64,000 bases of DNA from Bacteroidales bacterium (GCA_017509045.1 JAFWQP010000044.1:1499-65498), one strand, 5' to 3'; positions 42,239 through 63,099 are shown, numbered from the stretch's first letter. The notes: generated by a model not told the origin, from the sequence alone. Made by a program: numbers and translations.

Positions 42239-42269
42239 CATTTTTTTTCTTATATTGATAAAAAAATAG

Positions 42270-42277
42270 TACTTTTG
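42270..42277 (+). promoter_or_regulatory. -7 promoter box (TACTTTTG) upstream of mtgA
   Basis: Exact TAnnTTTG, about 210 nt upstream of the ATG at 42488. Confidence 0.4.
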
Positions 42278-45287: not shown

Positions 45288-45349
45288 CCACCATTAAGAT
45301 AACTTTCTTATTCATTCCATTCTTATTACGTAAAAATAGAACCCACCTA

Positions 45350-46312
45350 ATGGAAAAAGAACTCTATCTTGCCGCCGGCTGCTTTTGGGGCGCCGAGCAT
45401 TTTTTGAAACAAATCGAAGGTGTCACCTTTACCGAGGTGGGATTTGCCAACGGCAATACCCCTAATCCCACCTACAAAGAGGTCTATACCGACACCACAG
45501 GCTATGCCGAAACGGTGCATCTGCGCTACGACCCGCTGCGCGTCAGCCTGCGTTTCCTCTTGGAAATGTATTTCAAGGCCATCGACCCCACCAGCCTCAA
45601 TCAGCAGGGCGAAGACCGCGGCACCCGCTACCGCACCGGCATCTATTTTACCGACTCTGCCGACGAGCCCCTAGTCCGTTATATCATGTCCGAGGAGGCA
45701 AAACACTACGGCCTGCCCCTACAGGTAGAGGTGATGCCACTCGCCAACTTCTACCGTGCCGAGGACTACCATCAGGACTACCTCGTCAATAACCCCACTG
45801 GCTACTGCCACCTGCCTGTCGAGCTCTTTGCATACGCCCGCAACAATCGCGACACCGTCACTCTCGAAAAGTGCGAACGCTACAACCTGCTGTTGCGCCA
45901 ATTGTCAGCTTTGGCCGAAGGCGAAACCGACACCATTGCCCTAATGGCAAACACAGCCGCCATGCTTCACGACACCTTCCACTTCTGGTGGACGGGATTC
46001 TACCGCGTGGTGGGCGACGAACTGCTGCTTGGTCCCTTTCAAGGCCCCGTAGCCTGTATGCACATAGCCTTTGGTAGCGGCGTCTGTGGCACAGCTTGGC
46101 AGCAACGCCACACCCTTGTAGTCCCCGATGTGGAGGCATTTCCAGGCCACATCGCCTGCAGCGCCGCCTCGCGTAGCGAAATAGTGGTCCCTGTCTATGA
46201 CGGCGACAATGTCATAGCAGTGCTCGACATCGACAGCCAGCACTTCGCCACTTTCGACGACTGCGACCGCCACTTCCTTGAGCAACTAGTCGTGTTACTC
46301 AGCCCGGCATAG
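45350..46312 (+). CDS. msrA: Fusion of peptide-methionine (S)-S-oxide reductase MsrA with a GAF-type free methionine-(R)-sulfoxide reductase-like domain
   Basis: MEKELYLAAGCFWGAEHF (MsrA active site) through ...GYCHLP. This is followed by a ~155-aa GAF-like domain with GPVACMHIAFGSGVCGTAW and SEIVVPV. Confidence 0.82.
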   Translation: MEKELYLAAGCFWGAEHFLKQIEGVTFTEVGFANGNTPNPTYKEVYTDTTGYAETVHLRYDPLRVSLRFLLEMYFKAIDPTSLNQQGEDRGTRYRTGIYFTDSADEPLVRYIMSEEAKHYGLPLQVEVMPLANFYRAEDYHQDYLVNNPTGYCHLPVELFAYARNNRDTVTLEKCERYNLLLRQLSALAEGETDTIALMANTAAMLHDTFHFWWTGFYRVVGDELLLGPFQGPVACMHIAFGSGVCGTAWQQRHTLVVPDVEAFPGHIACSAASRSEIVVPVYDGDNVIAVLDIDSQHFATFDDCDRHFLEQLVVLLSPA

Positions 46313-46419
46313 CCGCAAGGGACTTAGTATATCAGCTATCGAATACAATCGCTTATGCTTACGAATCCTATTCCTGAAAAACCTAGTACGCAAATTTGCC
46401 ATATTGCATGTCAAAACAA

Positions 46420-47565
46420 TTATAATTTTTCAACAAAAACTATACAATATGGATTACTTCCATCTTCTCTGACATCGCACCAGATGCTTTCTTCTTCAAA
46501 TAATTCTATCTTTTTATAGTCCCAATCTTCATGTTCGTTCCTCCATATTTTAATACCCACCAACAAGGGAGATTCATTTTTGTTTATTATCTTTATGTTT
46601 TGCTGTTCATAATCTATTTTAAATGCTTTATTATACGTTGAAGTATTAATAATTGTAACAGAATCGGTGATAACATCAACTAATGTCCAATGTTCTTTTA
46701 TCAAATTCTCTTTCAAATTAAAGATAGTATAAACGAAATTACATAGTTTTGTCGAATAATTGCGCAGTTCGTAATTGCGCAGTTCGTAAATTGCTTGCAC
46801 GATAACAGATAAATTATGACCTCCTTCTCTCATAGTCAAATCTAACACAAACACCCATTTGCCATTTTTATTTGAAGAAGACTTAATGTTTACTTGCTGT
46901 AAATTGTTTTCATCAATTTTAAGATGCCATGAATTATTGAAAAAAGGATTATCTTCAGATCCTTTTAGTTTATGACCTTTTAGGTTTCTAAATATTTGTG
47001 ATTCATTTGGTTTTGCTGTTGGTATACATAACAAACAAAATTGAAATGAGTCGCTCTCAATAATTTTTTCAATAGTGGAATTGGCATCAAACGACGGATC
47101 CTTCAATGTTGCGTGAAATGATTTCTCAAACATTTTTTTTCTGTGCTTGTTCTCGTAATTTGCTTCTATTTTATCAAATTTAGCTTGTGCAGTTATCCGC
47201 TCTTGCTCATATTTTTTTTTATTTTTTTTGAGTATTTCTTTCAACGCTTGAGTCGCAATCTCCCTTGTCTCATATTTTACGTAGTCAAAAGTATCAATAA
47301 AATAATCTTTGTCATTATTCGTCTTTTCGACATATAGGTTCTGGTAATCGTTGATGCTTTTTGCTAGCTTCTCTCCCTCTAATTTAGCTTGATTGTCTCT
47401 TGAAATAGACAATACTAATATTCGAATACCTACAATCCCCCCAATGATAACCCCTAGATAAAGCAGCCATTTCAAGGAGTATCTATTATGGAGGCGCCTA
47501 CCACACATGTGGCAGTAAATTGCATAATTAGGATTATTTGCTTTACAAGTGTGACATCTCTTCAT
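46420..47565 (-). CDS. Zinc-ribbon, single TM, beta-rich C-terminal domain protein (island gene 16)
   Basis: MKRCHTCKANNPNYAIYCHMCGRRL (CxxC..CxxC), TM segment WLLYLGVIIGGIVGIRILVL, then ~320 aa of unknown fold. AT-rich codon usage. Confidence 0.6.
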   Translation of the reverse strand: MKRCHTCKANNPNYAIYCHMCGRRLHNRYSLKWLLYLGVIIGGIVGIRILVLSISRDNQAKLEGEKLAKSINDYQNLYVEKTNNDKDYFIDTFDYVKYETREIATQALKEILKKNKKKYEQERITAQAKFDKIEANYENKHRKKMFEKSFHATLKDPSFDANSTIEKIIESDSFQFCLLCIPTAKPNESQIFRNLKGHKLKGSEDNPFFNNSWHLKIDENNLQQVNIKSSSNKNGKWVFVLDLTMREGGHNLSVIVQAIYELRNYELRNYSTKLCNFVYTIFNLKENLIKEHWTLVDVITDSVTIINTSTYNKAFKIDYEQQNIKIINKNESPLLVGIKIWRNEHEDWDYKKIELFEEESIWCDVREDGSNPYCIVFVEKL

Positions 47566-47993
47566 GAGTAAAGTTGTTTGAGTTTTTTTGTATAGGTATA
47601 ACTCTCCAAAAGATGACGAGAACTCCAAAAAATATGCCCAATAAAGTTAATGTTAAGGAAATACATAACCATCTAATGTACAATAGTCCAACATCTGACT
47701 TCTCAAGTTCTTTAGGATAATACAAACAGAAGAGCACTTCTACATATTCTTTGTGGTTTTTCTTTTCCTTCCCAAATTCTTTTTTCGCAATATTGTTTGC
47801 GTATCTTCTTGCATCATATGCGGCTAACGTTCTTTCGAATTCGAATTTTCTTTATAATTTCTAACAGCCTAATGTCAAGCTCCGTTAATTCCTGTATATT
47901 AGGTTTTACAGATAGTTCTACTCCGTACTTATGACAAAATACCGCATCATGATCATGTTCTGTTATATTGCAATTAGGGTTCGGACATTTCAT
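47543..47993 (-). pseudogene. Frame-disrupted zinc-ribbon/TM gene (island gene 15)
   Basis: A 59-aa ORF at 47993-47814 (MKCPNPNCNITEHDHDAVFCHKYG...) stops at a TGA. A second frame is open from 47851 to 47543 and encodes ...KEYVEVLFCLYYPKEL... plus TM segment LCISLTLTLLGIFFGVLVIFW. The two frames overlap at a tcgaat tcgaat repeat. Confidence 0.45.
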
Positions 47994-48100
47994 TTTTATA
48001 GCTTTAAATAATCAAGCAGTAATGCATACTTTAAATAATTAGTCTATCAATATAAGATCTAGTCATTTCTTAGAAAACAACTAATTTTATTACATAAATT

Positions 48101-48311
48101 CACTAGTGTCTCTTAATTAAATTTGCAATTTCCATATTGCCTCTTATCCTCATGAGAATTGGATAAATGAAGGAATGGAGATGATTTCAAAACCTACGAT
48201 AGATTCTCACGGACGAATGTTATTTCAAGCCTCGGATACATGTTTTGATGCTTAAGTTGCTATAAATTATGTTACTATATATACATTAACAAAATTTCAG
48301 AGACACTAGTG
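48101..48311. repeat. 13-bp perfect inverted repeats bracketing a 185-bp AT-rich segment
   Basis: cactagtgtctct (48101-48113) against agagacactagtg (48299-48311). Both are adjoined by acataaatt(c). Confidence 0.75.
48118..48125 (+). promoter_or_regulatory. -7 box (TAAATTTG) inside the IR-bracketed segment, currently pointing away from the downstream island genes
   Basis: Exact TAnnTTTG on the plus strand, 5 nt inside the left IR. Confidence 0.35.
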
Positions 48312-48397
48312 ACATAAATTCTTTTTTTATATTTAATAATAGTAATCAAGATTTCTGAATATATGTTGAACGCTTAATTTCTATTAATAGAAAGTTT

Positions 48398-48745
48398 TTA
48401 TGTATTTCTTTTACGGCCACATCTATGGCAGTATTTAGAGTATGTCTGATAATAATGAGTGTGACACTGAGGACATTCTTGGTCTGCATCTATTAATACT
48501 TCCTTTTTATTATGTTCTTTGGTGTTTGAAATAGACGTAGGTGGCATAATAACATTATTCGAATTAGTGGATATTTTTTTTTCATTAGACGAAGAGCTGT
48601 CAATATCCTTTATCTCGGCACAATACATTTCAATAGACTGGCATCCATCATCCTTTGTGAGACAATTAAGACAATCATTAGGTTGGGAAATACTGGTACT
48701 AACTGAAGCTAGTTCTGTCATTTGGTTATTATCTATCTCTTCCAT
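48398..48745 (-). CDS. Small protein with a C-terminal zinc ribbon (island gene 14)
   Basis: 115 aa ending ...ECPQCHTHYYQTYSKYCHRCGRKRNT. Confidence 0.6.
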   Translation of the reverse strand: MEEIDNNQMTELASVSTSISQPNDCLNCLTKDDGCQSIEMYCAEIKDIDSSSSNEKKISTNSNNVIMPPTSISNTKEHNKKEVLIDADQECPQCHTHYYQTYSKYCHRCGRKRNT

Positions 48746-48813
48746 TTTATTATTATATTAGTATGAGTCAACATTTTCTCTAATGGCGAAATGACAGGTT
48801 TTTGTTTGTAGTG

Positions 48814-50379
48814 TTATTGCACATTTTTTAGCCTTTCACGAATAGTTAGACATTCGTCATCTTGGAGAGGTTTGATTTGATATGTGCGAGAGGGAGACCC
48901 ATCGCTATTAACGGTCAGTGACATCAAACCACTCTTGTCTCGACTGATTGAAAAATTCACTTGTGTTTCTTTTGTTGTGGCATTTGGATTGGAAAATGTG
49001 TATTGTTCATAGAAAATGCGGCGATCGATGTTTCGTTCCTGGTCTTCTATTGGAAATGGGAAATCCTCTTCATCACGTTCATTTTCCCATATATCTACAG
49101 ATACTGCAGGCTGTCCGTTCTCATGGGGATTAAAAACATAATCTTTACTGTATTCCATATTTTCTGAATACCGGATAAGGTTCTTAATGTAAAAATTGAC
49201 TTTGTCATGATATAAAGTACCATATGAGTGAGAGGATAATTCATAAATGGAAGCCTTATTACTTTCTAATAGATATGCATATATTGCTGCACCTTCTGCG
49301 ATGGCTTGTCCAGGATTACCTTGAGGAAACCATTGATAGGGATCGCCTGTTCCTATTCGTCCACCATAATTGCGCATAAGAGTGTTGCGTATCATTGGCA
49401 TATATGATGATCCTCCGACTGTTACAAATCTCATCTGACGAAGTTCTGTTTCAGACAGTCCACTACGACGAATAGCCTCATCAACAACTAGAAGACATTG
49501 TTGGGTAAGTTGCATGGTGAGATTCTCGAAATTACTTCTCGTAATAGTAAACTCTTTGTCACATCTTGGCAAAATATCCGTACAAGATTCATCATCAGTA
49601 AGATTTTTCTTCACCACTTCGGCCCTGTTCATTATTGCCGCACGAAGACAACGTTGGTCTCCTGTTGGGTTATCGAAATCAACATTTATGTCAGACTGGT
49701 TTGCTATCTCTTCTGCAAGAAGTCTGTCCCAATCTTGCCCACCAAGATAATGCCCCAAAACGCCATAATCGCTTGATGAAGCAAGAACCCGATATTTGCC
49801 AGCCTCATAATGATGAACAATACTTACATCAAGAGTCCCTCCTCCTAGGTCGAAAACGAGAATTCGTTCGCCCGCGTTAATATTAAATGAAAGAGCGGCA
49901 GCAGTCGGTTCGTGAATAAGGCCCAATACTTCTATACCTGCCAATTCGGCTGCTTGTTTGGTTGCTGCCCGTTGCCATCCAGTAAAGCCTGTTGGGATAG
50001 AGATAACTGCACGCGGACGTGCTGTAACACCATTGGCTTTATTCTGTTCGAGTACTGGAGAGATTAGTTTACGCAATATGCACGCAGATCCTTCGATGGG
50101 CGACACCTTGCGTGTACCATCATTTGACGGTATTGTTTGTTCACAGTACTGATGACCCATCTGACGCTTAAAAAGAGACAATACTTGATCTGCAGCAATA
50201 TTGGATTCAGCTTGCCGTTTAGCGGTAGCCCCCACAAGTATTTTCCCGTCCGGTTTGAACTGAACGACTGATGGTAGAAAGTTGTGTCCGTTTTCAGTTG
50301 GGATAACTGATGGACGGTTGTATCCTTCAAATTGAGCAATGCAGGAATATGTAGTTCCTAAATCTATTCCGTAAACCAT
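48814..50379 (-). CDS. Hsp70 (DnaK-like) family ATPase with a short divergent C-terminal domain (island gene 13)
   Basis: GIDLGTTYSCIA, VFDLGGGTLDVSIV and VTVGGSSYMPMI are the three Hsp70/actin-fold signature segments. 521 aa against about 640 for DnaK. Confidence 0.9.
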   Translation of the reverse strand: MVYGIDLGTTYSCIAQFEGYNRPSVIPTENGHNFLPSVVQFKPDGKILVGATAKRQAESNIAADQVLSLFKRQMGHQYCEQTIPSNDGTRKVSPIEGSACILRKLISPVLEQNKANGVTARPRAVISIPTGFTGWQRAATKQAAELAGIEVLGLIHEPTAAALSFNINAGERILVFDLGGGTLDVSIVHHYEAGKYRVLASSSDYGVLGHYLGGQDWDRLLAEEIANQSDINVDFDNPTGDQRCLRAAIMNRAEVVKKNLTDDESCTDILPRCDKEFTITRSNFENLTMQLTQQCLLVVDEAIRRSGLSETELRQMRFVTVGGSSYMPMIRNTLMRNYGGRIGTGDPYQWFPQGNPGQAIAEGAAIYAYLLESNKASIYELSSHSYGTLYHDKVNFYIKNLIRYSENMEYSKDYVFNPHENGQPAVSVDIWENERDEEDFPFPIEDQERNIDRRIFYEQYTFSNPNATTKETQVNFSISRDKSGLMSLTVNSDGSPSRTYQIKPLQDDECLTIRERLKNVQ

Positions 50380-50405
50380 AATTATTTATTATTTTTTTGA
50401 ATTAC

Positions 50406-51383
50406 TCACTCACAAAGTATTACTTTCTCAGGACTTAACATGCTTTCAGGAAGCCCAGAAGATGCACGCCAAACCAAACGAGGCAAAACGGTATATGCCA
50501 CAGTATTTGATTCTTGTCCCAGTATAGAAATGGGGACATGCTCATCATCCACCTCCATAGTTGATGCATCAAAAGCAGTTCCAAGCTTGGAAATAATCGC
50601 TGTCAAACCGATAGAATCAAGATTTCTTCTAAGAAAGCTGAGGATTAACTCCAATTCATTCCCGTCATATTCTGGGTTATTCTCTTTTTTGTATAACAAA
50701 CGTTTGGCCGTACGTTCATATAGTTTTACAGGCATTTCGACGAGTTTATACATTAGTCTCTGATAAACAGACTCCGCGCATAATTCATTACTATTGGAGG
50801 AACTGGATGTTTGTGCAGTTATTGTTCTCGACAATTGGTCAATATTAAAACTAATGTTGTTCAGTGTATTACTTAACTCAGTTGATAACTCATCTGTTTT
50901 TCTTGCTGTATTAACGGTCATTTCAGGTTGTTTTTTTTGCTGTAACTGATTTATATTATTCCTGATGCTGTCAGCCAATTGCGAAAAACCTGTTGCCAAT
51001 TTTTCTTGCAGTTCTTTAATAGTTTGGATTGTGTTTGTGACAACATCCAAAGATTGACCATTCGGTAATGAACAAACCAAATCATTCAATTTAGACAACT
51101 CAGTAAAGAAGCTATCTTGTTGTACTTTTATCTCCATGATACTATTCATCGAATTGAGTATTGACTTGACACCCTGGCAGACTTCATTTTCTGAAGCAAT
51201 CAATGCATCAATTTTGTTTGTCTCTACCTCAGCACTATTATTCTCCGATTGCACCTCTGGAACGGTTTGTTTCTGTATTAGCCAAGCTATCTGTTCAAGG
51301 CTTAGGGGTACATTGTAGTATTTTACGCCATCTTTTGTCGTAATCGAAACAATATAGTCTATAGTATTCATATCCGAAATCAT
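50406..51383 (-). CDS. Coiled-coil protein with a GrpE-like C-terminal domain, putative dedicated nucleotide-exchange factor (island gene 12)
   Basis: Long predicted coiled coil, then ...LDSIGLTAIISKLGTAFDASTMEVDD...NTVAYTVLPRLVWRAS...LSPEKVIL. This parallels GrpE ...FGVEVI...G.PFDP..H.A......V......GY......R.A.V.V as I recall it. The gene directly precedes the Hsp70 gene. Confidence 0.5.
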   Translation of the reverse strand: MISDMNTIDYIVSITTKDGVKYYNVPLSLEQIAWLIQKQTVPEVQSENNSAEVETNKIDALIASENEVCQGVKSILNSMNSIMEIKVQQDSFFTELSKLNDLVCSLPNGQSLDVVTNTIQTIKELQEKLATGFSQLADSIRNNINQLQQKKQPEMTVNTARKTDELSTELSNTLNNISFNIDQLSRTITAQTSSSSNSNELCAESVYQRLMYKLVEMPVKLYERTAKRLLYKKENNPEYDGNELELILSFLRRNLDSIGLTAIISKLGTAFDASTMEVDDEHVPISILGQESNTVAYTVLPRLVWRASSGLPESMLSPEKVILCE

Positions 51384-52204
51384 TTTTTCTTTATTATTAT
51401 TGTAACTTGACCGATGATAATTCTGTCATCGTGTTGTAGCGATATCTCGTGGGGCTTATGACCCATGTAATTATGGTTCCAATCCCCCTCTTGCAATGTT
51501 GCTTTGAGAGTGAACGTATTTGTCGTGGGATTTTGGACTGCCTTGATAATGAAATGATTCTTTTTTACTTCAGGATCTCCTGTTTGTAACTTGCAACGCT
51601 GAGATCCTTGCGGAATATCGATAGTTCCTTTCCCAACATAGGTATCACCATAATATATTGGATGAATATCGTTAAGGCTGTTGGCTTCAGTTCCTCCAAC
51701 GTATACAACCATATAGGCTAAAGGGGTTTTGTTGTCATTAGTGTTCGGAAATGATGGCGTTTGGCTGCTCCCTTCTTGAGTTGCCTTCATCTCTTCTATC
51801 AGTTTCTCTAATTGTGTTTTTTCATTACTCAATCTTTCTCGTTCTACAGAAACTGAATCTAATTGCTGCTGTTTTTCAATGATTTGATTGCGTAAACCGA
51901 CGTTCTCCTCCGCAATTGCATTCTGTCTCTCTATTTGGGTCTTGAAATTGGATATTTGTTGTTCTAGTTTCGTGATTTTCTCCTGAGCTTTACAATTGTT
52001 TTCCGTTAGGGTGTCGATTTGCTCTTTTGAGTTATTGATTAGTTCCCAATTCCTTTTGGCAATTTTAATTCTTTGTGCATCTATCTGCTGGATGACAGGA
52101 TTAGGTGTAGACACCAACATCTGTCTGTTTTCAAATCCACATGTAGGACAGATGGAAGAACTGTGTGTTTGTCCACATACAGGACAAGTAATGTGTTGAT
52201 CCAT
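51380..52204 (-). CDS. Zinc-ribbon, coiled-coil, FHA-like domain protein (island gene 11)
   Basis: N-terminal CPVCGQTHSSSICPTCG, ~110-aa heptad-rich middle, and a C-terminal beta domain ...YYGDTYVGKG...KKNHFIIKAV...ISLQHDDRIIIGQVTIIIK with an FHA-like pattern (divergent). Confidence 0.55.
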   Translation of the reverse strand: MDQHITCPVCGQTHSSSICPTCGFENRQMLVSTPNPVIQQIDAQRIKIAKRNWELINNSKEQIDTLTENNCKAQEKITKLEQQISNFKTQIERQNAIAEENVGLRNQIIEKQQQLDSVSVERERLSNEKTQLEKLIEEMKATQEGSSQTPSFPNTNDNKTPLAYMVVYVGGTEANSLNDIHPIYYGDTYVGKGTIDIPQGSQRCKLQTGDPEVKKNHFIIKAVQNPTTNTFTLKATLQEGDWNHNYMGHKPHEISLQHDDRIIIGQVTIIIKKK

Positions 52205-52206
52205 AA

Positions 52207-52842
52207 TTATATTTTTATTGGTAATCTATTAAGTCTTTGTGCATTATGTTGTCTATCTAATGGTGAATTTCGCAAGTAGTATATTGTTTCTTTATCGGAA
52301 GCAATGACGAGAATGATTTTGTTCTCTGAAAGTAATTGATGAATTTTATCGATGATGCCAAGTGGATTACAATCATCCTCCTGATTGCCTTTTTCTTCTA
52401 TTTGGAATAATTTACACAAGAAAGTTTTCTCCACTCTATAAAGCAAGAGGATACCATTGCGGTAGTGTTCTGGGGGTGGGATTAGGGAAGAGTCTCCATC
52501 AACCACAACAATATGGCCAAGAAAATCCCAATTCTTTTTCTTGATTCTTGTCGACAATTGGCGTAACAAAACAATAATGGACTCTTTATCAACCAAGTTG
52601 GTATAAAATAGCCTCTTTTCCATACTATTATGTCTTAAATATTGCCAAGTAACAATAATTAAAAACAAAATGACAACCCCAATAATGTATAACGACATGG
52701 TACTATTGGATGTATTATTTGAGACTATTGATTCTATGCTGTCTTGATTCACTTTAGATGAGACATCCAGTATCACGCAGGATGAGTCTCCGTTCAAAGC
52801 ATTTAATGAATCATATAATAATCTATTGGATGTATCATTCAT
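52207..52842 (-). CDS. Single-pass membrane protein of unknown function (island gene 10)
   Basis: TM segment LYIIGVVILFLIIVTWQYL at about aa 50-70, then a ~140-aa alpha/beta-looking domain. Confidence 0.5.
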   Translation of the reverse strand: MNDTSNRLLYDSLNALNGDSSCVILDVSSKVNQDSIESIVSNNTSNSTMSLYIIGVVILFLIIVTWQYLRHNSMEKRLFYTNLVDKESIIVLLRQLSTRIKKKNWDFLGHIVVVDGDSSLIPPPEHYRNGILLLYRVEKTFLCKLFQIEEKGNQEDDCNPLGIIDKIHQLLSENKIILVIASDKETIYYLRNSPLDRQHNAQRLNRLPIKI

Positions 52843-52862
52843 GATGATGAAAGTTGATTTTT

Positions 52863-55697: not shown

Positions 55698-55713
55698 ATT
55701 CTTAACGTTTTTT

Positions 55714-57012
55714 TTACGGATTAATTGTGTGCTGACGTCGCTGAATACTGTGTCTTCGACTTGTTTCATCATTAATTTCAAGTGGTGAATTAATGTCTAT
55801 TGACTCTGGGTTGCATGGTGCCGAACTTGTCACTGTCATTCCACTGGCACGGAGATCTTCTAGTATTTCTTTCTCAAGAGTATCGAGTAGCTTTTGGTCA
55901 ATATAAGCACCACTGTCTACTCTCACAAGCGTATGAACATCCCCTTGTTCCTTGCCTGGACTGACTATTATTTCAACAATGGCCTTGTCAGACTGACGTA
56001 GCATTCTCAGGATGTAACTTTCTCGTTCATCATTGTGGACGAAACCTTCTGTAATAACTTGAAAATAATAGTCAGAAGACAAAATATCCCTTATGAAATC
56101 AGCTTGCTGATGTCGCAAAATGGATAGTTTGATTTCGGAGACGGTAGATGCTGCTTGCAATTCCTGCATTTTCTTCAATTCCACGAGACGAGTTAGGTCG
56201 GATTGTAATTGTTGCATTGAATAGGATGGCTGCAGATTAGCCGATTCCAACCTTCTTCTAATCTCGTTCAGTTCATCCTCTATTAATTTGTACTGTCCGT
56301 CAGTCCAATAATCAATATTGCTGGCGTGATGCTTCTCGTCGCCAAAAACAAAGGTGTTGTTGCGGTGTCCAGCCGCATCCGACAACATGGTATTTGACAA
56401 TTCTAGAGCCTCATTGAGTGTGTCATAGAATCGTATTCGTGCACTAGTGACCTCGCTGTCAGAAAGAAGTAAATCTGTCATGGCAGATTGCAACCTAGCA
56501 CGTTTGGCAAGAGGATTCATCTCTACAGAGGTTGCCTGATGAAGTGCGGCATCCACATTTAGAAGTCGTTGACTGGCAAATCTTTGGTAGTCTACATCTG
56601 ATTTAGCAATGCTAAATTCAATTTGTATTTGCTGATACAATTGTTCGGCATCTGAATAGTTGGCTGCTATCTGATTTGTTATGTCCGCCACATGTCTGGT
56701 GGATCTATCAATCTGTTCTTGCAATAGCTGTACTGAAGATGCCACTTGATTAATGTCTCCAACAATTTGATTATATTTTTTGATTCCCCTTCTTTCAATT
56801 TCATGCAAGGTATTGATATGGTGCTTCCGTTGTTCAGAAATATGCTGGTCTGTTTGCCCGATTCCATCCTGTATCTGTTTGAAAATAGCTTGTGCGCGAT
56901 TGACGGCTTGATCCATTACCCGTTTAGAAGCTTCGCCAGACCGTAGTCTTTCTATTTCATCCGTTATTGCAATATATTGCTCCGACTTAATTTTTGTTGT
57001 GTTTTCACTCAT
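55714..57012 (-). CDS. Coiled-coil protein, paralog B (island gene 8)
   Basis: 432 aa. Shares with paralog A the order coiled coil, IDYWT motif, helix, YYF-containing alpha/beta C-terminal domain. Confidence 0.6.
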   Translation of the reverse strand: MSENTTKIKSEQYIAITDEIERLRSGEASKRVMDQAVNRAQAIFKQIQDGIGQTDQHISEQRKHHINTLHEIERRGIKKYNQIVGDINQVASSVQLLQEQIDRSTRHVADITNQIAANYSDAEQLYQQIQIEFSIAKSDVDYQRFASQRLLNVDAALHQATSVEMNPLAKRARLQSAMTDLLLSDSEVTSARIRFYDTLNEALELSNTMLSDAAGHRNNTFVFGDEKHHASNIDYWTDGQYKLIEDELNEIRRRLESANLQPSYSMQQLQSDLTRLVELKKMQELQAASTVSEIKLSILRHQQADFIRDILSSDYYFQVITEGFVHNDERESYILRMLRQSDKAIVEIIVSPGKEQGDVHTLVRVDSGAYIDQKLLDTLEKEILEDLRASGMTVTSSAPCNPESIDINSPLEINDETSRRHSIQRRQHTINP

Positions 57013-57036
57013 GATAATTAATTGTATTATATATTG

Positions 57037-58398
57037 TTAATGAAAAAGTTTTTGAGCCTTAAGATGTTCTGATAAGTGTATTCTGTCTGTAGAGGGCACA
57101 ATCTCATCTTCATCCTGTTGTGACGAAAATGTTTGCCCTCTCTTTTCTGTTTCCGACAAGACTATTCCAAGATCTAAGAGAGTTTTTTTGATATCATCAT
57201 ATAACTTTTGTTCAATATTATAATCAATATATCTATTATATGCATAATGACAAATCGTATCTATATTATCACTTCCATGGACGGGATTTAGGACCAATCT
57301 TAAGTTTATGTTTAGCGCGGGATTATTAAGGTATACCACATAGCCCAATCGGTCATCGTCGTCATCGTACCCATCAAGTGTAAGCGTAAAGTAATATTGA
57401 CGTACAAGCTCGGAAGTTGCCAACAGAGCAAGCTGGACTCTGGTTTTCGAATTCCGCAATGAAGTTATTGCAAGTGGTACAATACGGTCTATCCGTTCTA
57501 TCTGTCCTTTCAACAATTCGCGGTCTTGCCTTAGGTTTTCGACCATGTACCCTGGAGTGATTGTCGAATTTCTCATTCTTGGAACTATCACTTCCCGGAT
57601 ATAGTGTACTAAGCTGGAGAATTCGTTGTATGTCCAATAATCAATATCGATTTTTTCCTGCGGGTTGTCAGAGTCACTGTCATAATACAAATCATTTTCA
57701 TAATGACTTATTAATTGTAATGCTTGGTCGATTTGTCCATTGGCTTGTGCCAATTCGCTCAAGTATTCAATGCGTTTATGGTCCACCTCTTTTTGCCCTG
57801 CCTTAATGACTGTCATGATGTCCAATGCTATTGTCTGAAGAACAACTGCGGGAGATGTGTTGTTAATCTGATTGACTTTGAGAACCAACTCATTCAAGTC
57901 TCGCACGTTATATTTCTTCCAATAAGGATCTTCTTTTATGGAGTCGAACATCTCTATTGCCTGTTGGCAATTGAGATGTGCAATTTGTTTGTCTCGATCT
58001 GCTTCACGTTCTATTGCATCAATGTTTCGTTTTAGTTCTTGTTGTTGCTCTTGTTGCCGTTTTATTTGCTGCCTTATGTTTGATATTTCTTTTGCTAACA
58101 AGTCGTACTGTTTCTTCCCTTCAGAATACAGTCTATTTAACTCTTCTTCGCATTCTGCCAGTATTTGATCAATTACAGTCTGGTATTGTTGTCGTTCTCT
58201 ATCCCAAGTTTGCTGCATTTGGGCAATGAGATCAAGCATTCTTTGGGGATTCGCCTTTTGTGGTTTCTTACGAAGAACAGACAACTCATGCATGAGTCTA
58301 TCATAAGCATTATTGTCCAGATAAATATCGCTGTGGGTTTCTGGATTCCAATGCCCCCATATATATCTGTCATATTCGCTTCTGGTTCGTTTAGCCAT
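57037..58398 (-). CDS. Coiled-coil protein, paralog A (island gene 7)
   Basis: 453 aa. Contains IDIDYWTYNEF and ...VRQYYFTLTLDGY, compared with NIDYWTDGQY and ...SSDYYFQVITEGF in paralog B. Confidence 0.6.
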   Translation of the reverse strand: MAKRTRSEYDRYIWGHWNPETHSDIYLDNNAYDRLMHELSVLRKKPQKANPQRMLDLIAQMQQTWDRERQQYQTVIDQILAECEEELNRLYSEGKKQYDLLAKEISNIRQQIKRQQEQQQELKRNIDAIEREADRDKQIAHLNCQQAIEMFDSIKEDPYWKKYNVRDLNELVLKVNQINNTSPAVVLQTIALDIMTVIKAGQKEVDHKRIEYLSELAQANGQIDQALQLISHYENDLYYDSDSDNPQEKIDIDYWTYNEFSSLVHYIREVIVPRMRNSTITPGYMVENLRQDRELLKGQIERIDRIVPLAITSLRNSKTRVQLALLATSELVRQYYFTLTLDGYDDDDDRLGYVVYLNNPALNINLRLVLNPVHGSDNIDTICHYAYNRYIDYNIEQKLYDDIKKTLLDLGIVLSETEKRGQTFSSQQDEDEIVPSTDRIHLSEHLKAQKLFH

Positions 58399-58414
58399 AT
58401 AATGATAGTTTGTT

Positions 58415-59008
58415 TTAAATGTATTTTTCCCGTGGTGGTGCGATACCTACCGATATCATCTCCTCGTCGGAAAGGAGAAATAGTTGGCGTCTGGGATGAG
58501 GATGGCTTTCGAGTTCTTTCGCAAATGGTTGCAGACGTTCCGTAAAAAAATAGTATTTCTGGTTGGAACTGCCTCTTAGTCCTAAGTCATCGTTCAGGCT
58601 ATCAATATACGGTCCGTCTATAAGCAAGTCGACCAAGGTGGAAAGTTTAGAGCGTATGTTGTTGTCTATTTCGTCAAACAAAAATCCTGTGAAGAGAATG
58701 ATGTCCCATTCGGGGAGGAAAATACGAACATCTTGCAAAAGTGAAAATACAGACTGAGCCTGAATTAGTGGTTCTCCCCCACTAACGGTTAATCCACTGC
58801 AGTTACTCTGTTTCATGAGTTCAATTAACTCGACAGTTGAGTAGAATACACCTCCAGTCGTAGACTGCAAGTTTGGTGATGCGCAGCGAAAGCAACTACG
58901 ATTACACCCTTTTGTCCATAGCACGAAACGGTTGCCTGGTCCAAGAGAGTTTACTGGAAAGCAATAATATCCAATTTTGATTCTATATTCAAGTGGTTTA
59001 TTATTCAT
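58415..59008 (-). CDS. NrdG-like radical SAM activating enzyme (island gene 6)
   Basis: SLGPGNRFVLWTKGCNRSCFRCASP (CX3CX2C), SGGEPL, ILFTGFLFDEI and DGPYIDSLNDDLGLRGSSNQ. These parallel E. coli NrdG GPG..C..CPGC, SGGDP, VWTGYKLDEL and RGSSNQ as I recall them. Confidence 0.82.
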   Translation of the reverse strand: MNNKPLEYRIKIGYYCFPVNSLGPGNRFVLWTKGCNRSCFRCASPNLQSTTGGVFYSTVELIELMKQSNCSGLTVSGGEPLIQAQSVFSLLQDVRIFLPEWDIILFTGFLFDEIDNNIRSKLSTLVDLLIDGPYIDSLNDDLGLRGSSNQKYYFFTERLQPFAKELESHPHPRRQLFLLSDEEMISVGIAPPREKYI

Positions 59009-59037
59009 CTAGACCAATTTGGTTAATTGGATGTACA

Positions 59038-59541
59038 CTAGTAACTGAGAGATTCCATTGGCAGATTTCTACGTTTATTCACCTCTTCTTTTAAAATCTC
59101 TTCAACTGAGGATAGCTTCGATTCGATTTCAGAGAAAATGTTTTTTATTGCATCATTGTCTTTTAGATTATCCAACTGTTCAGAAACTTTTTTGACGAGT
59201 TCTTCGTGTTGCCGTATTCCTGACATTCGGTCATCGCATGCCGTGATAACCTCATTCCACTCTTTGTTTTTCAAATTAATGATGTTATTTTGTCTTTCTA
59301 TTTGTATCTTTATCATATCAGCAAAACGAGATTCTAGATCACAGAGATTTTGTTCATTAAGAGCAGCGTTTGAATACTCGGCCAAAATCTTTAATGCAAA
59401 CAAACGATGCAACGCATCATCATCTTTCAGCAAGAGATTTACAATATTATGAATCTGACCCTCAATATCAGAAAGTGTCAGTGTTGAGATTTCAGGCAGA
59501 TTCTCAATTAGAGATTCTATTTGATTTTGAATTGTAGACAT
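59038..59541 (-). CDS. Small coiled-coil protein (island gene 5)
   Basis: 167 aa, largely helical and heptad-like, with no recognisable motif. Confidence 0.5.
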   Translation of the reverse strand: MSTIQNQIESLIENLPEISTLTLSDIEGQIHNIVNLLLKDDDALHRLFALKILAEYSNAALNEQNLCDLESRFADMIKIQIERQNNIINLKNKEWNEVITACDDRMSGIRQHEELVKKVSEQLDNLKDNDAIKNIFSEIESKLSSVEEILKEEVNKRRNLPMESLSY

Positions 59542-59611
59542 GTGTGTGTCATTTATTGTTACTATTGGGTTATTTGCTATATCGTTTTAAAAAATGACAA
59601 AAGTCTAAAAA

Positions 59612-60700
59612 TCATACCATTAATAAATCTTTGGTATTAGTTTCGTTTTCTGGAAACTTGACATCGTTTGATTGAGCTGAATTAATATCGGCAGTATCAT
59701 CTTTTTCATTAGTATCTGTGTTTGGAGTTATAACTTCATTATTGGGAAACAATACAACATCTTTGTTTAGTTCATTAGACGTAGTAATGTTAATTACGGT
59801 TTGTCCAAATACGTTTGTAGTACTATGTAGAGAAAAACAGAAGTATTTTACGCCTGACATCTCAATGTTGGGTACGGAATCATACACAAATTGCGACAGC
59901 GGGACTTTGGGTAAAAGGAAAAGATAATCCATATCTGTACCGTCAGGGACATACACAAGTTGTGTCGTTTCTGGTGTTAAGTAGCCATGGTGAATATCTG
60001 ATTCAGATACTGATGTCATTAGGCAAACTCGGTGATTAGATGGCACAGCACACATTTCTCTGCGGAATTCGGAAATAAGCTCATTGCTACAACAATCGAA
60101 TGGCGTTTTTTGAATTAGCAGCGATACTGTTGCACGTACCTGAAGTGCGAATGCCAGAGGTAATATCCTGCCGTCCTCTGACAGAATGATGACTTCTGCA
60201 TCAGTCGGCAAAGAACTTACTGCCTTGCTGCAAGAGTCCAATAATTGGTGAAATTTTATCTCGCTCGAATCATTAACGAACAATTCGTCGTACTTCTCAT
60301 CGTATCGTATTTTCCGCAACGGTTCATCCGGATAATGTCTAAAACACATTTTCCACCATTTGTCAGTACGAACCACGTCATATAGTTCACCAAGAATACC
60401 ATACAGCTCAGTCAACGCCTTTGGCATTGTTGGAAAAGAAACATTGAAATTGCCCTGTCCAATTGATTCTGAAAAAGGAATAAAATTGAAAGCGATAGTT
60501 TCCAACCTGTTTTTTAATGATAGAAATAATAAAATATTTTTGTTCGAAATATTCTCACAAAGGCCATTCTTCCATAGGATTGCCAATGCCGCTTCGGAAC
60601 TATGTACCACCCCACAATTCGACTCTCCGTTTGAGCAAGTGGAGGTTGGTAACTGCCTTAGCCATTGGCAATAATTGCTATATTCGTTTATTAGTCTCAT
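59612..60700 (-). CDS. Hypothetical protein with an N/T/D-rich tail (island gene 4)
   Basis: 362 aa with no motif I recognise. The last ~60 aa are low-complexity (NNEVITPNTDTNEKDDTADINSAQSND). Confidence 0.5.
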   Translation of the reverse strand: MRLINEYSNYCQWLRQLPTSTCSNGESNCGVVHSSEAALAILWKNGLCENISNKNILLFLSLKNRLETIAFNFIPFSESIGQGNFNVSFPTMPKALTELYGILGELYDVVRTDKWWKMCFRHYPDEPLRKIRYDEKYDELFVNDSSEIKFHQLLDSCSKAVSSLPTDAEVIILSEDGRILPLAFALQVRATVSLLIQKTPFDCCSNELISEFRREMCAVPSNHRVCLMTSVSESDIHHGYLTPETTQLVYVPDGTDMDYLFLLPKVPLSQFVYDSVPNIEMSGVKYFCFSLHSTTNVFGQTVINITTSNELNKDVVLFPNNEVITPNTDTNEKDDTADINSAQSNDVKFPENETNTKDLLMV

Positions 60701-60728
60701 CGTTATTTTCTATATGTAATACAACAGA

Positions 60729-61007
60729 TCATGTTAATAGTTCCATTATTTCCCTTGCATTCCGTTTGCTAAAACCACATGCACGCACTTCTTTGCCGCC
60801 AGTACTTTCAATTATGATATCTGCGAACAGAAGTCCCGCAGCAATTCGTACACTTGATATGTTCGCCTTAGCGATGAATGCTTGTCGATAACCAACTATT
60901 GTCCCTTTGAAATAGGTGACATTACCATTTTCATCATCTATTTCTAAGCGGTCTGGGAATACAACATTGTCGTTCCCTGATATTCTGCTGGCCACGTATG
61001 TTGGCAT
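60729..61007 (-). CDS. Small protein, possibly a bacterial PH-like (bPH) domain (island gene 3)
   Basis: 92 aa. ...ISSVRIAAGLLFADIIIESTGGKEVRACGFSKRNAREIMELL resembles the YdbS/YdbT-type bPH C-terminal strand-helix pattern. Tentative. Confidence 0.4.
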   Translation of the reverse strand: MPTYVASRISGNDNVVFPDRLEIDDENGNVTYFKGTIVGYRQAFIAKANISSVRIAAGLLFADIIIESTGGKEVRACGFSKRNAREIMELLT

Positions 61008-61008
61008 A

Positions 61009-61299
61009 TTAAGGTTGTTTTGAGAGTTCTATGAAATAGTATATAACTTTAAAGAAGTGTATAATGAATGCGAATGCGGCGGTTACTAAACCCAATGTAA
61101 AAAACAAGAGCATCTTTAAAACGACCCCTACTCCCTCATACTTCATAAATGATGTTCCTTCAAACAAGTTCGTCATCCAAATTGGGCGCACACTTTCCAT
61201 AAAGAGAGCAGCTAGCCCTAATGTGAGAACTACAATTAGCGAAGACTTCCTTTTCTCACGGATTTCTTCTGAATAAACATTGACGGGCAGAACAATCAA
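61009..61299 (-). CDS. Two-TM small membrane protein (island gene 2)
   Basis: TM segments SLIVVLTLGLAALF and LLFFTLGLVTAAFAFIIHFF. A 1-nt gap separates it from the next gene. Confidence 0.5.
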   Translation of the reverse strand: MIVLPVNVYSEEIREKRKSSLIVVLTLGLAALFMESVRPIWMTNLFEGTSFMKYEGVGVVLKMLLFFTLGLVTAAFAFIIHFFKVIYYFIELSKQP

Positions 61300-61532
61300 T
61301 CATATGGATAATACTTATATACCCCTTGATGCTCTTGACATAAACTTGCTGCAAGTTCTGGATCCGAACAGTATTCCATGATGCTGATGACAGATTCATC
61401 ACCGTACCGTCCCTCAAAATAGAGTTTGTCTGAATCTTGGTAATCTTGATACATTTTGTTATACAAATGATTCTTAGCATCCTCGTATTTTTGTTCTGAT
61501 GGGAAAAAATATGTGCTTCTTCTTTTTGACAT
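61296..61532 (-). CDS. Small Tyr-rich protein (island gene 1)
   Basis: 78 aa, first ORF of the operon, with a 4-nt overlap with gene 2. Confidence 0.4.
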   Translation of the reverse strand: MSKRRSTYFFPSEQKYEDAKNHLYNKMYQDYQDSDKLYFEGRYGDESVISIMEYCSDPELAASLCQEHQGVYKYYPYD

Positions 61533-61545
61533 AATATTTATTTCT

Positions 61546-61557
61546 ATCTAGCTAGAT
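61546..61557. promoter_or_regulatory. Perfect 12-bp palindrome atctagctagat just upstream of the first island gene
   Basis: Lies 14 nt upstream of the ATG at 61532. Possible operator. Confidence 0.25.
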
Positions 61558-61632
61558 TATACAGGGGACTTCTAATTCAATTCCTCCGAATCTGTTGAAG
61601 TCGGTTAAACATGGTTCGTCTGAATCACGATG

Positions 61633-61640
61633 CAAAATTA
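61633..61640 (-). promoter_or_regulatory. Candidate -7 box (TAATTTTG on the minus strand) for the island operon
   Basis: Plus-strand caaaatta, about 100 nt upstream of the ATG at 61532. I saw no clear -33 TTTG. Confidence 0.35.
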
Positions 61641-61828
61641 CAACTTTTTTTTGAATATTTGTAGTCTTTTCTCTTCTTTTTTTTGTTGATAGTAGTAAAA
61701 GTGTTAACAATTAGTGTTTTGTAAATTCCAGTACGCATCTGCTTACATGATTAATTCACATAAGTTTGTCTTGTGAACCAAGTCCTTTGGGGTGTCTTGA
61801 ACGGAATTAACTTGACACATTTTTGCAC

Positions 61829-61982
61829 AAAAAAGGGTCTAAGGGCCATTTTGCAGGCTGGGACAAGTCACTAACGCATATATATATATATATATTAGGC
61901 GTTTCAAGCAATTCAAAACAATTTGACAAAAAAATGCTTGAGAAAAAAGCTCTATGGGTCATTTTTCAGGCAGGGACTTGCC
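61829..61982 (+). repeat. Two ~40-bp imperfect direct repeats separated by an (AT)9 microsatellite
   Basis: aaaaaagggtctaagggccattttgcaggctgggacaagtc (61829) against aaaaaagctctatgggtcatttttcaggcagggacttgcc (61943). (at)9 at 61878-61895. Confidence 0.65.
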
Positions 61983-62000
61983 TGAATGTAAGGGATTGCG

Positions 62001-62008
62001 TATCTTTG
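62001..62008 (+). promoter_or_regulatory. -7 box (TATCTTTG) upstream of the transposase remnant
   Basis: Exact TAnnTTTG, 68 nt upstream of the ATG at 62076. Confidence 0.4.
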
Positions 62009-62075
62009 CAGAAATATAAATGTACGATATGCACAAAAAAAAGTTCGTCCTGTGGGTCGTAAATAACCAAAAGAA

Positions 62076-62760: not shown

Positions 62761-62797
62761 CGTATTCTCAGCATAGTGCCACTACGGTCGGCAGTGG

Positions 62798-63073: not shown

Positions 63074-63099
63074 GACTAATTGTTTTTAAATTCCGTTTG

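Follow-up and report, generated by a model that had tools for sequence, protein, structure and literature searches.

A compositionally foreign sixteen-gene island in a Bacteroidales bacterium combines Hsp70, tandem AAA+ and orphan radical SAM modules in a candidate conflict system

We analyzed a 64,000-nucleotide (nt) stretch of DNA from a Bacteroidales bacterium (GCA_017509045.1 JAFWQP010000044.1:1499-65498), hereafter the window, and within it an AT-rich island at 46313-61800 that a sequence-only reading had proposed as a candidate undescribed system. The island holds 16 open reading frames (ORFs), all of which our ORF calls placed on the minus strand, in agreement with that reading. We lettered them from 3′ to 5′, from A (the last gene) to P (the first gene). 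The essential gene content was also as first described, comprising an Hsp70, a double AAA+ ATPase, an NrdG-like radical S-adenosylmethionine (SAM) enzyme and the paralogous pair I and J. In what follows, module A refers to genes L, K, J, I, and H, and module B to genes F, E, D, and C; the remaining genes are treated as accessory. With moderate confidence, we read the island as a composite, horizontally mobile conflict system of the defense or abortive-infection type, gated by nucleoside triphosphate (NTP)-driven chaperones. The genes, from first to last, are as follows:

P, 61296..61532, minus strand: cluster-opening gene for a tyrosine-rich small protein of 78 amino acids (aa); overlaps O by 4 nt
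O, 61009..61299, minus strand: 96 aa, three membrane helices predicted by hydropathy scan
N, 60729..61007, minus strand: 92 aa, very conserved, weakly bacterial-PH-like, with a C-terminal 'VRACGF'
M, 59612..60700, minus strand: 362 aa, fold not recognized; kept in Bacteroidales versions
L, 59038..59541, minus strand: 167-aa helical protein, always directly upstream of the radical SAM gene
K, 58415..59008, minus strand: 197 aa, a radical SAM enzyme of the type that activates glycyl-radical enzymes (NrdG/PflA)
J, 57037..58398, minus strand: 453-aa coiled-coil protein, paralogue of I
I, 55714..57012, minus strand: 432 aa, a coiled-coil protein ending in a small alpha/beta domain; the hallmark gene of module A
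H, 52863..55697, minus strand: 944-aa ATPase with an N-domain of ~365 aa followed by two CbbX/EccA/SpoVK-type AAA+ modules
G, 52207..52842, minus strand: 211 aa, one predicted membrane helix; variable accessory gene
F, 51380..52204, minus strand: 274 aa; opens module B and encodes, from N- to C-terminus, a zinc ribbon, a coiled coil, and an FHA-like beta domain
E, 50406..51383, minus strand: 325 aa, coiled coil plus a conserved C-terminal domain; candidate GrpE-like exchange factor
D, 48814..50379, minus strand: 521-aa divergent Hsp70 with an intact ATPase domain and a beta substrate-binding domain, and no helical lid
C, 48398..48745, minus strand: 115 aa, low-complexity N-terminal part and C-terminal zinc ribbon
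B, 47814..47993, minus strand: 59-aa ORF, degenerate zinc ribbon
A, 46420..47565, minus strand: 381 aa; closes the island and combines one membrane helix with a zinc ribbon and an outer domain (330 aa) whose fold is not recognized

The island is compositionally foreign and horizontally acquired. Its GC content is 37.3% over 46313-61800, compared with 50.5% in the left flank (1-46312) and 44.8% in the right flank, and the lowest other 15.5-kb stretch within the left 46 kb has 48.2% GC. In 100-nt steps, change points fall at ~46,300-46,400, where GC drops from 0.55-0.61 (46,200) to 0.31 (46,400), and at 62,000-62,100, where it rises from 0.34 to 0.51. GC at third codon positions (GC3) breaks just as sharply, ranging from 0.28 to 0.40 in fifteen island genes vs. 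0.49 to 0.73 in nine flank genes. The earlier claim of a discontinuity, which rested on single 60-nt counts that we reproduced (31.7% at 47101, 36.7% at 53881, and 55.0% at 45901), therefore stands. Of the two borders it gave, at 46.3 and 61.6 kb, the left one agrees with our change point and the right one does not: low GC runs to ~62,050, and because the right change point lies at 62,000-62,100, the low-GC zone extends ~250 nt beyond 61800.

The genes form one tightly packed same-strand cluster with operon-like spacing. Between successive genes, C through P, the spacings are 68, 26, −4, 2, 20, 16, 24, 16, 29, 70, 28, 1, and −4 nt, matching the earlier description of gaps of at most 70 nt, two 4-nt overlaps, and spacings of 1-2 nt.

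For comparison, we used 12 independent related loci on 17 contigs, most of them metagenome contigs; these are a sample and not a census. The genomic contexts were eleven from the subfamily of the Hsp70 protein D plus three loci found via M or I, and they were scored with hidden Markov models (HMMs) built from our own alignments. Loci L011, L012, L013, L015, L017, L018, and L019 are independent of the HMM training sets.

Within module A, K is an activase-type enzyme without a cognate glycyl-radical enzyme nearby. It matches PF13353 at 2.4e-28 and the NrdG model TIGR02491 at 1.8e-24, although its 86.5 bits fall below the NrdG cut-off of 126.1, and it scores 43 bits vs. the 231.75 required for TIGR02493. 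Its best sequence match in the PDB is PflA (8fo0, 2.2e-12). Like NrdG and PflA, K combines the PF13353 fold family with CxxxCxxC (C35/C39/C42), GGEP, and 'DG.Y...GLRGS.NQ', and the cysteines, GGEP, DG.Y, and GLRGS.NQ are invariant in five homologues; K also carries an extra 45-aa C-terminal extension. Unlike those enzymes, its constant neighbors are the helical protein L, I/J, and the AAA+ ATPase, not a glycyl-radical enzyme. No cognate enzyme (NrdD, PFL, or other) was among the Pfam and NCBIfam matches in the island or the related loci, which agrees with the description of K as an NrdG-like enzyme without its usual partner. L lies beside K by HMM in L001, L003, L006, L009, L015, and L017, and the two genes overlap in L003 and L006.

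The coiled-coil proteins I and J are paralogues, as had been claimed (BLASTP, 22% identity, E 2e-5), and have in common the motifs 'DYW(T/S)' and 'G(F/Y)D..D.R..Y'. Orthologues of J occur in L001, L003, L009, L015, and L017. In an AlphaFold model of I (predicted local distance difference test score, pLDDT, of 75.8), helical hairpins span 10-315 and a domain of four strands and a helix spans 318-389; a Foldseek search with this model against PDB and BFVD returned nothing at E <0.001. Proteins of the I lineage, like single-copy relatives, carry a conserved cysteine after their last helix. A profile search of 1.84 billion proteins yields 235 representative clusters for I/J at E<=1e-3, and the stricter limit of E<=1e-10 leaves 97, so it is a real family of modest size. 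Close relatives of I are rare, because a pattern scan found one match among 185,579 species representatives, and the wider family appears in the profile search. No I homologue was found among INPHARED phages or in IMG/VR.

The earlier identification of H as a double SpoVK/CbxX-type AAA+ ATPase is well supported. H matches TIGR02881 (1.5e-132), the EccA model TIGR03922 (3.9e-123), and the CbbX model TIGR02880 (2e-112), each over two stretches, and its PDB matches include CbbX (3zuh, 1e-48) and EccA1 (9lur, 1.7e-45). The AAA+ modules carry AAA_lid_6, and GNPGTGKT and DEAY each occur twice, with Walker A and Walker B intact in both modules. An hhalign comparison of the two modules with each other gives 100%, and one of the N-domain with either gives <0.5%. 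A reading of this N-domain as a degenerate third AAA+ module was rejected (hhalign 0.3-0.4% against both modules; nothing in the PDB with phmmer). The start of H is most likely the ATG at 55697, giving 944 aa, and not an upstream TTG, because the alignments of its relatives begin there. By analogy with CbbX (the red-type Rubisco activase), EccA (type VII secretion), and SpoVK, to which the H modules match at 1e-45 to 1e-132, these modules should form rings that pull on the tail of a specific client. H differs from them in having two tandem modules behind a 365-aa N-domain, with some relatives fused to a trypsin-like protease. No Rubisco, ESX/type VII secretion, or sporulation context was found in the window or the related loci.

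Module B is built around D, which matches PF00012 at 5.6e-63 over model positions 1-441 of 599, confirming the Hsp70 assignment. Because this match ends at 441/599 and the protein ends at residue 521, D has no helical lid. Its score against the NCBIfam DnaK model is 208 bits vs. a cut-off of 648, and it lies far below the DnaK/HscA cut-offs. Across 20 family members there is no variation in GIDLGT, K71, EPTAAA, D.GGGT.D, or GGS, and the subfamily comprises about 100 clusters of 510-567 aa at 34-67% identity. D thus shares the ATPase domain motifs of the DnaK-DnaJ-GrpE system but departs from it in its lidless architecture, its sub-cut-off score, and the lack of a J-protein in the locus, where none of the 16 island proteins has a DnaJ Pfam match or an HPD tripeptide. 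A J-protein may be encoded elsewhere in the genome. Because the radical SAM, Walker A/B, and Hsp70 phosphate-binding motifs are intact or invariant, the enzymes K, H, and D look active.

The gene for E lies immediately upstream of the Hsp70 gene in all eleven contexts of this Hsp70 subfamily. Its earlier GrpE-like label holds only below threshold: the Pfam GrpE model PF01025 matches two of the seven E-family members (best E 3.1e-4), the E protein of the window is unmatched, and a PDB profile search with the E family returned coiled coils only. An hhalign comparison of E with an approximate E. coli GrpE sequence gave 0.6% in a plausible-looking register. A GrpE-like exchange function for E is plausible but weak. 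Similarly, the zinc ribbon of F (CPVC...CPTC) is followed by a C-terminal domain whose FHA-like label drew weak matches to PF00498 (E 0.03, 15.2 bits vs. a threshold of 20.7) and PF16697 (E 0.028). The canonical FHA residues, which bind phosphothreonine, are not kept in the F-family alignment, where GK/GS replaces G-R and [N/D/E]-H-F stands without a conserved serine. The fold may be FHA-like, then, with the phosphothreonine-binding residues lost. By HMM, F is directly upstream of E-Hsp70 in every Bacteroidales locus with this Hsp70. The ribbon of C (CPQC...CHRC) weakly matches PF12773, and analogous tail-ribbon genes come after Hsp70 in L005 and L007.

An apparently active Hsp70, a GrpE-like partner, and a CbbX-type AAA+ ATPase on horizontally acquired DNA, with an msrA oxidative-repair gene as left neighbor, could also describe a transmissible protein-quality-control or stress-tolerance island (heat, oxidative, or other), comparable to the horizontally transferred heat-resistance loci of Proteobacteria. 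We consider this the least probable of the explanations weighed here. No J-protein, small heat-shock protein, Clp/Lon/FtsH protease, or thioredoxin was found in the cluster by Pfam and motif scan, the Hsp70 has no lid and scores well under the DnaK thresholds, and the chaperones sit amid zinc ribbons, coiled coils, and a radical SAM enzyme. Moreover, msrA is outside the island by composition, the distribution of the system is rare and patchy, and in one sister locus described below, a kinase/phosphatase/vWA triad takes the Hsp70 slot.

Conserved linkage, which had been named beforehand as the test on which the proposal of a system would turn, recurs on a Calothrix plasmid and in Bacteroidales metagenome contigs whose Hsp70 is as little as 35% identical. 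Module B (F-E-Hsp70) is adjacent and in the same order in 11/11 contexts of the Hsp70 subfamily. Module A has the form [L]-K-I/J(-I/J)-multi-AAA+, and K adjoins I/J in every locus with the radical SAM gene. The two modules occur together in 7/11 contexts (the window, L001, L003/L010, L006, L011, L017, and L018), at 35-67% Hsp70 identity. Conserved gene order and modular exchange are direct observations here, as are the domain identities and intact catalytic motifs above. The cluster is not one indivisible 16-gene unit; it is a composite of two portable modules, which also occur apart. Module B is found without the radical SAM block in L005, L007, L012, and L019.

The Calothrix locus belongs to another phylum. 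A tblastn search with I against PLSDB led to the mobilizable plasmid pCAL6303.02 of Calothrix sp. PCC 6303 (L013, NC_019728.1), which carries, in order, an Hsp70, a 1316-aa TPR-repeat protein, a radical SAM enzyme, an I-like protein, an AAA+ ATPase, and a zinc-ribbon/coiled-coil protein. Its radical SAM enzyme is 36.5% identical to K (7e-34), its I-like protein matches at 1e-12, and its AAA+ ATPase aligns with H over the full length, including the N-domain, at 30% identity (8e-102). By eye, the TPR-repeat protein has a P-loop NTPase-like motif, and the second phosphate motif of the Hsp70 is altered ('CNMGSSSFN'). The C-terminal coiled coil of the TPR protein was tried as a homologue of L and rejected (hhalign 0.2%); position alone is analogous. 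On the opposite strand (16354-22024), the locus is flanked by three paralogous small GTPase-like proteins and two paralogous uncharacterized proteins.

The other relatives vary around the same modules. In L006 and L018, three AAA+ modules are fused to a trypsin-like protease, and in L011 two AAA+ modules are fused to trypsin, with a protease part that matches protease domains of PADLOC defense models. L006 also has a separate single AAA+ fused to an E domain. In L005 (12041-21611) and L007 (13727-21704, minus strand), module B stands beside an oppositely oriented operon of NERD, Ser/Thr kinase, PP2C, FHA, and a >1700-aa protein, which is a second link of this Hsp70 family to kinase/phosphatase signaling. 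The first gene of these minimal modules was considered as a HEPN RNase on the basis of an 'RNxSSH' seen by eye; it has no Pfam or PADLOC match, and we do not claim it. HEPN/nucleotidyltransferase pairs do occur near some related loci. In L012, module B is accompanied by two dynamin-like GTPases and an ATPase-domain-only Hsp70, and in L019 by a single AAA+. Two genes after Hsp70 in L003 (11676-14004) encode Gly/Ala-rich hydrophobic stretches that appear glycine-zipper-like by eye and have no Pfam match; these glycine-rich proteins are candidate membrane-disrupting effectors. At the 3′ end of L006 (20066-21548) and L019 (18938-21563), zinc-ribbon proteins are fused to FGE-sulfatase-type domains, which passages of PMC7159879 describe as a hypervariable binding module in conflict systems. 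The settings are mobile or chromosomal: L006 lies beside TraM, DUF4138, and TraG, L013 is on the mobilizable plasmid, and L018 is beside rimP-nusA-infB. A peptide scan of genome contigs with Hsp70 peptides alone returned nothing, and an AAA+ match on a Bacteroides finegoldii 'plasmid' proved to be an unrelated stand-alone AAA+.

Since modules A and B also occur apart, they may be merely neighboring systems. Under this explanation, two or three independent systems would co-travel because conflict genes cluster in islands, as the Hsp70 triad without the radical SAM block in four loci and the differing gene order (Hsp70 first in L006 and Calothrix, last in the window) would suggest. A further locus, L015, has the radical SAM block with a TerY-P triad and no Hsp70 within 10 kb downstream. 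By contrast, the blocks co-occur in the seven contexts listed above and across phyla in Calothrix, the H-G-F junction gaps are 20 and 2 nt with no gap >70 nt in the array, and the AAA+::E-domain fusion in L006 crosses the blocks. In addition, even at loci that lack Hsp70 or have it at a distance (L015 and L013), an F-like zinc-ribbon/coiled-coil gene comes after the AAA+ gene. We therefore regard independent neighbors as unlikely, while giving this explanation more weight than any other alternative to a single composite system.

L015 (JAEEGL011870201.1) is a sister locus whose versions of the nine genes P through H share 43-90% identity with those of the window. After H comes an F-type protein whose first 140 residues are common to both loci, at 51% identity. 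The genes that follow are of another kind. They encode a vWA protein with a DxSxS metal ion-dependent adhesion site motif (PADLOC TerY 1.2e-12), a PP2C phosphatase (2.6e-17), and a kinase (STK_OB 1.4e-34) with a C-terminal zinc ribbon and, by eye, a hydrophobic C-terminal tail, and then a 253-aa protein, a second zinc-ribbon kinase (STK_OB 1.1e-32), and a homologue of A. A TerY-P triad thus occupies the E-D-C slot, between the F-type adaptor and the A-type membrane protein. The ribbon of C also resembles that of the L015 Ser/Thr kinase by eye (YSKYCHRCGRKR vs. YSKFCHMCGKARK). Because they take the same slot in sister loci, the two units, GrpE-like/Hsp70 and kinase/phosphatase/vWA, look like regulatory modules that can replace each other. 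According to passages of PMC11090510 that cite Anantharaman 2012 and Gao 2020, TerY-P is a switch that depends on phosphorylation, and related TerY-P-like modules work on their own as antiphage systems. It is plausible that both units are nucleotide-driven switches. They differ in that the window has no vWA, PP2C, or kinase match in PADLOC or Pfam and in that Hsp70/GrpE would work by chaperone cycling, not phosphorylation.

The accessory genes are less widely conserved. Four zinc-ribbon proteins and four membrane proteins had been counted in the island, and in each case three remain. Zinc ribbons are present in A, C, and F, and the fourth, in B, is degenerate; because its second CxxC is lost ('FCHKYG') and gaps of 248 and 404 nt flank it, B is probably a gene remnant. 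The N-terminus of B resembles the ribbons of A, of the A-like protein of L015, and of the Zn-ribbon::FGE-sulfatase protein of L006. Membrane helices are predicted in A (one), G (one), and O (three). The fourth candidate, N, has a hydropathy of 1.62 vs. a crude membrane cut-off of 1.6, and it matches the bacterial PH model PF14470 (bPH_3) at E 0.0036, below threshold; we read it as a small soluble bacterial-PH-like protein and not a membrane protein. The membrane proteins A, G, and O could equally be effectors or sensors.

A has no Pfam, PADLOC, NCBIfam, or PHROGs match. Its homologue ends the L015 operon after the TerY-P triad (33% identity over 382 aa, 7e-57), so in this subclade A belongs with the system. 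G has homologues only in L001/L002, at 43% identity, and L003 has a second E-like gene at the G position. M has homologues in L001, L003/L010, L006, L008, L009, and L015 and no Pfam, NCBIfam, PADLOC, PHROGs, or PDB-sequence match; a by-eye idea that it is a degenerate Hsp70 paralogue was rejected (hhalign 0.04%, no PDB match, and an unusable AlphaFold model with a pLDDT of 40.5). N is 76-77% identical in L008, L009, and L015 vs. only 43-48% for its neighbor M. O is 72% identical in L015, and P homologues are 55-90% identical in L008, L009, and L015, the last of which has an extra P paralogue; neither O nor P has a family match in Pfam, NCBIfam, or PADLOC. Because L010 has a complete upstream region without P, O, and N upstream of M, these three genes are specific to this subclade. 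In the closest relatives (L008, 4609-9078, and L015), a ClpB-like AAA_2 protein, a 316-aa protein, and one or two LytTR DNA-binding proteins precede the cluster. A tblastn search for these upstream genes found no remnants in the window, where an insertion sequence (IS) remnant sits.

The R-x-C-G-[YF] motif of N is one that we take to resemble the NrdD glycyl-radical loop. N was considered on this basis as a glycyl-radical substrate of K and set aside, as by our own estimate the broader regular expression is expected by chance in ~40% of like-sized protein sets. The PH-like domain and the absence of N from L010, which keeps K, weaken the idea further, leaving it a low-probability one.

Small conserved P and N beside the membrane protein O, the large predicted extracytoplasmic domain of A, and the EccA-like AAA+ ATPase (TIGR03922 3.9e-123; PDB 9lur) are features that a maturation or export machine might have. 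In such a machine, which would handle a modified protein or peptide or else a secreted or surface structure, in the manner of peptide maturation or type VII secretion, the radical SAM enzyme would modify P, N, or L, and the AAA+ and Hsp70 proteins would chaperone the product to O, G, and A. There is a precedent in the HXS antiphage system, for which passages of PMC13128918 report a periplasmic effector matured by a radical SAM enzyme. We judge this explanation very unlikely for the island, as no transporter, FtsK/EccC-type ATPase, WXG100-like substrate, peptidase-containing exporter, or SPASM-type radical SAM enzyme was found with Pfam or NCBIfam. K is of the activase type, not the peptide-modifying type, and more distant versions retain the radical SAM gene but not P, O, and N.

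Comparison with known systems supports the earlier impression that this one has not been named. Full-text literature searches found no description of a system combining Hsp70, radical SAM, and SpoVK-type AAA+ proteins, and PADLOC (PADLOC-DB v2.0.0), NCBIfam, and PHROGs gave no system-level match for the island proteins. The PADLOC matches were generic: H to IetA/TRIP13 AAA+ (6.5e-22), F to LmuB/JetC coiled coils, the Hsp70 to PDC-M61B (6.1e-07 over 170 residues), and K to pVip (0.0067), with eleven island proteins lacking any PADLOC match. The claim that the combination is unprecedented is best confined to the module-A core (K-I/J-H), which has no described counterpart. It does not extend to the building blocks, as Hsp70/GrpE, SpoVK-type AAA+, and TerY-P already figure in predicted conflict systems.

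One close resemblance is to the GTPase-centric systems of Kaur, Burroughs, Iyer, and Aravind (2020, eLife; PMC7159879). Passages of that paper predict a conflict-system grammar of Hsp70 with GrpE, zinc ribbons, NTPase 'thresholding', and variable effectors, with NTP-dependent effector thresholding as the predicted role of these systems. As described there, the points in common with the island and its relatives are a mobile neighborhood, an Hsp70-family protein with a GrpE-type factor, zinc ribbons, membrane components, paired paralogues, and variable effectors such as trypsin-like peptidases. Some relatives have a more direct link to GTPases, namely the dynamin-like GTPases of L012 and the GTPase paralogues flanking the Calothrix locus. 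The latter resemble the double-GTPase conflict systems of PMC7159879, which in passages of the same source are nearly absent from cyanobacteria. The window differs in having no GTPase match in Pfam or NCBIfam and no FNIII-repeat protein. No Pfam or NCBIfam match hints at GAP1 or GASH in the window, a result for which no dedicated search was made. Its NTPase is instead a tandem CbbX/EccA-type AAA+ protein, and the radical SAM enzyme and I/J fall outside the systems described in those passages.

A second set of parallels is found in the CoCoNuT systems, which are Type IV restriction systems derived from McrBC (2024, eLife; PMC11090510) and whose operons contain SpoVK-type tandem AAA+ and Hsp70-like proteins. 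They share with the island an Hsp70-like nucleotide-binding and substrate-binding domain pair, tandem SpoVK AAA+ modules, coiled coils, and zinc ribbons, and, with relatives of the island, TerY-P triads and glycine-zipper membrane proteins, all in one predicted operon; the Hsp70-like, SpoVK AAA+, and glycine-zipper proteins are accessories of Type III-A CoCoNuTs (PMC11090510). By contrast, the window has no McrB GTPase, McrC/DUF2357, helicase, or HEPN match in Pfam. In CoCoNuT SpoVK homologues the C-terminal ATPase alone is intact and the Hsp70-like domains have degenerate ATPase motifs (PMC11090510), whereas both ATPases of H and the motifs of the D family are intact.

Taken with the mobile contexts, patchy distribution, variable effector-like genes, and TerY-P in the Hsp70 slot, these parallels point circumstantially to a composite conflict system. 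We infer a defense role and, within it, the following order of events, clients, and effector. The I/J coiled-coil assembly would serve as a platform or substrate remodeled by H, much as CbbX and EccA act on specific clients. K might prime or modify a component of this assembly or make a small molecule. The F adaptor and the ATP/ADP cycle of the Hsp70, reset by the GrpE-like E, could then act as the sensing and thresholding switch for firing. Output would pass through variable effectors, here probably A, G, and O, and in relatives perhaps the trypsin-like protease fused to AAA+ or the glycine-rich membrane proteins.

Several points weigh against this composite conflict system. The window version has no recognizable nuclease, NADase, pore-former, or protease, and no island protein passes a PADLOC, NCBIfam, or PHROGs defense-protein model, the similarity being generic only. 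Two of the assignments, GrpE-like for E and FHA-like for F, are below threshold. The modules occur apart, and the L015 radical SAM block has no nearby Hsp70. Finally, glycyl-radical-type enzymes are oxygen-sensitive; such an enzyme type fits anaerobic Bacteroidales and sits oddly on the plasmid of an oxygenic cyanobacterium.

A bolder version of the composite conflict system gives K a central part. Here, K would act on a protein of its own system, installing a glycyl or thiyl radical or a radical-derived cross-link, and the AAA+ ATPase and J-less Hsp70/GrpE would then arm, thread, or discharge that protein in a radical-based, chaperone-gated immune or suicide switch. We think this quite unlikely. 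Candidate targets, offered as leads only, are the conserved C-terminal-tail cysteine of the I lineage and, in this subclade, Gly78 of N ('VRACGF').

The flanks agree with the earlier description of a housekeeping msrA on the left and an IS remnant on the right, both identified by Pfam and NCBIfam matches:

MsrA-GAF fusion, left flank, 45020-46312, plus strand: PF01625 1.1e-54 plus a C-terminal GAF domain; GC 55-61% up to 46,300
IS256-family (Zn-variant) transposase, right flank, 62076-63089, plus strand: two adjacent ORFs, 62076-62534 and 62535-63089

The island begins directly after the stop codon of MsrA-GAF, whose own start is probably further downstream, because 268 nt of its longest ORF lie within the DUF445 gene before it. 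Other housekeeping genes in the left flank encode GAPDH, a FabG-like reductase, a transglycosylase, a XerD-like recombinase, and DUF445. The two IS256-family ORFs match NF048019 at 4e-28 (profile positions 14-161) and 5.4e-10 (164-234). Because together they cover only profile positions 14-234 of 304, the gene is a pseudogene or remnant.

At both island edges, 46406-46421 and 61908-61923, there is an imperfect 16-nt direct repeat (GCATGTCAAAACAATT and GCAATTCAAAACAATT, 14/16 identical). It could be a target duplication or chance, and because it is indistinguishable from chance, we claim no att site. An (AT)n microsatellite/palindrome lies at 61871-61898, within the 540 nt of non-coding DNA that separate P from the IS remnant. 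A XerD-like tyrosine recombinase (43432-44334, plus strand; Phage_integrase 2.4e-47, N-terminal SAM-like domain) is encoded 2 kb to the left of the island. Its GC is normal, so it is probably the chromosomal Xer recombinase and not an island integrase. Between the GAPDH and transglycosylase genes, a second short GC dip to 36% (42000-42499) is intergenic in appearance. A 1528-aa ORF at 28898-33484 (plus strand), with fibronectin type III as its sole Pfam match, is possibly a large surface protein unrelated to the island. Rfam and tRNA scans of the window gave no match, megablast of the island against E. coli genomes gave none, and a sigma-70 promoter/terminator scan did no better than on shuffles, Bacteroidales promoters being outside its models.

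If the composite conflict system is real, it would represent an undescribed mobile family in gut-type Bacteroidales and cyanobacteria, one that has recruited three types of housekeeping machine at once: a J-less Hsp70 with its exchange factor, a tandem AAA+ ATPase, and an orphan radical SAM activase. It would extend the prediction, made in passages of PMC7159879, that NTP-driven chaperones gate prokaryotic immune effectors in parallel to eukaryotic innate-immunity complexes. Judging by the slot shared by Hsp70 and TerY-P, chaperone cycling and phosphorylation may be two equivalent ways of setting a threshold, and the I/J family, with 235 clusters and no structural relative found, offers a marker for a census of the system. 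The orphan activase K directs attention to radical chemistry, acting on proteins or nucleotides in conflict settings, that is still unexplored. Should K indeed arm a radical switch, this would add a new substrate class for glycyl-radical activases, unprecedented among prokaryotic conflict systems.

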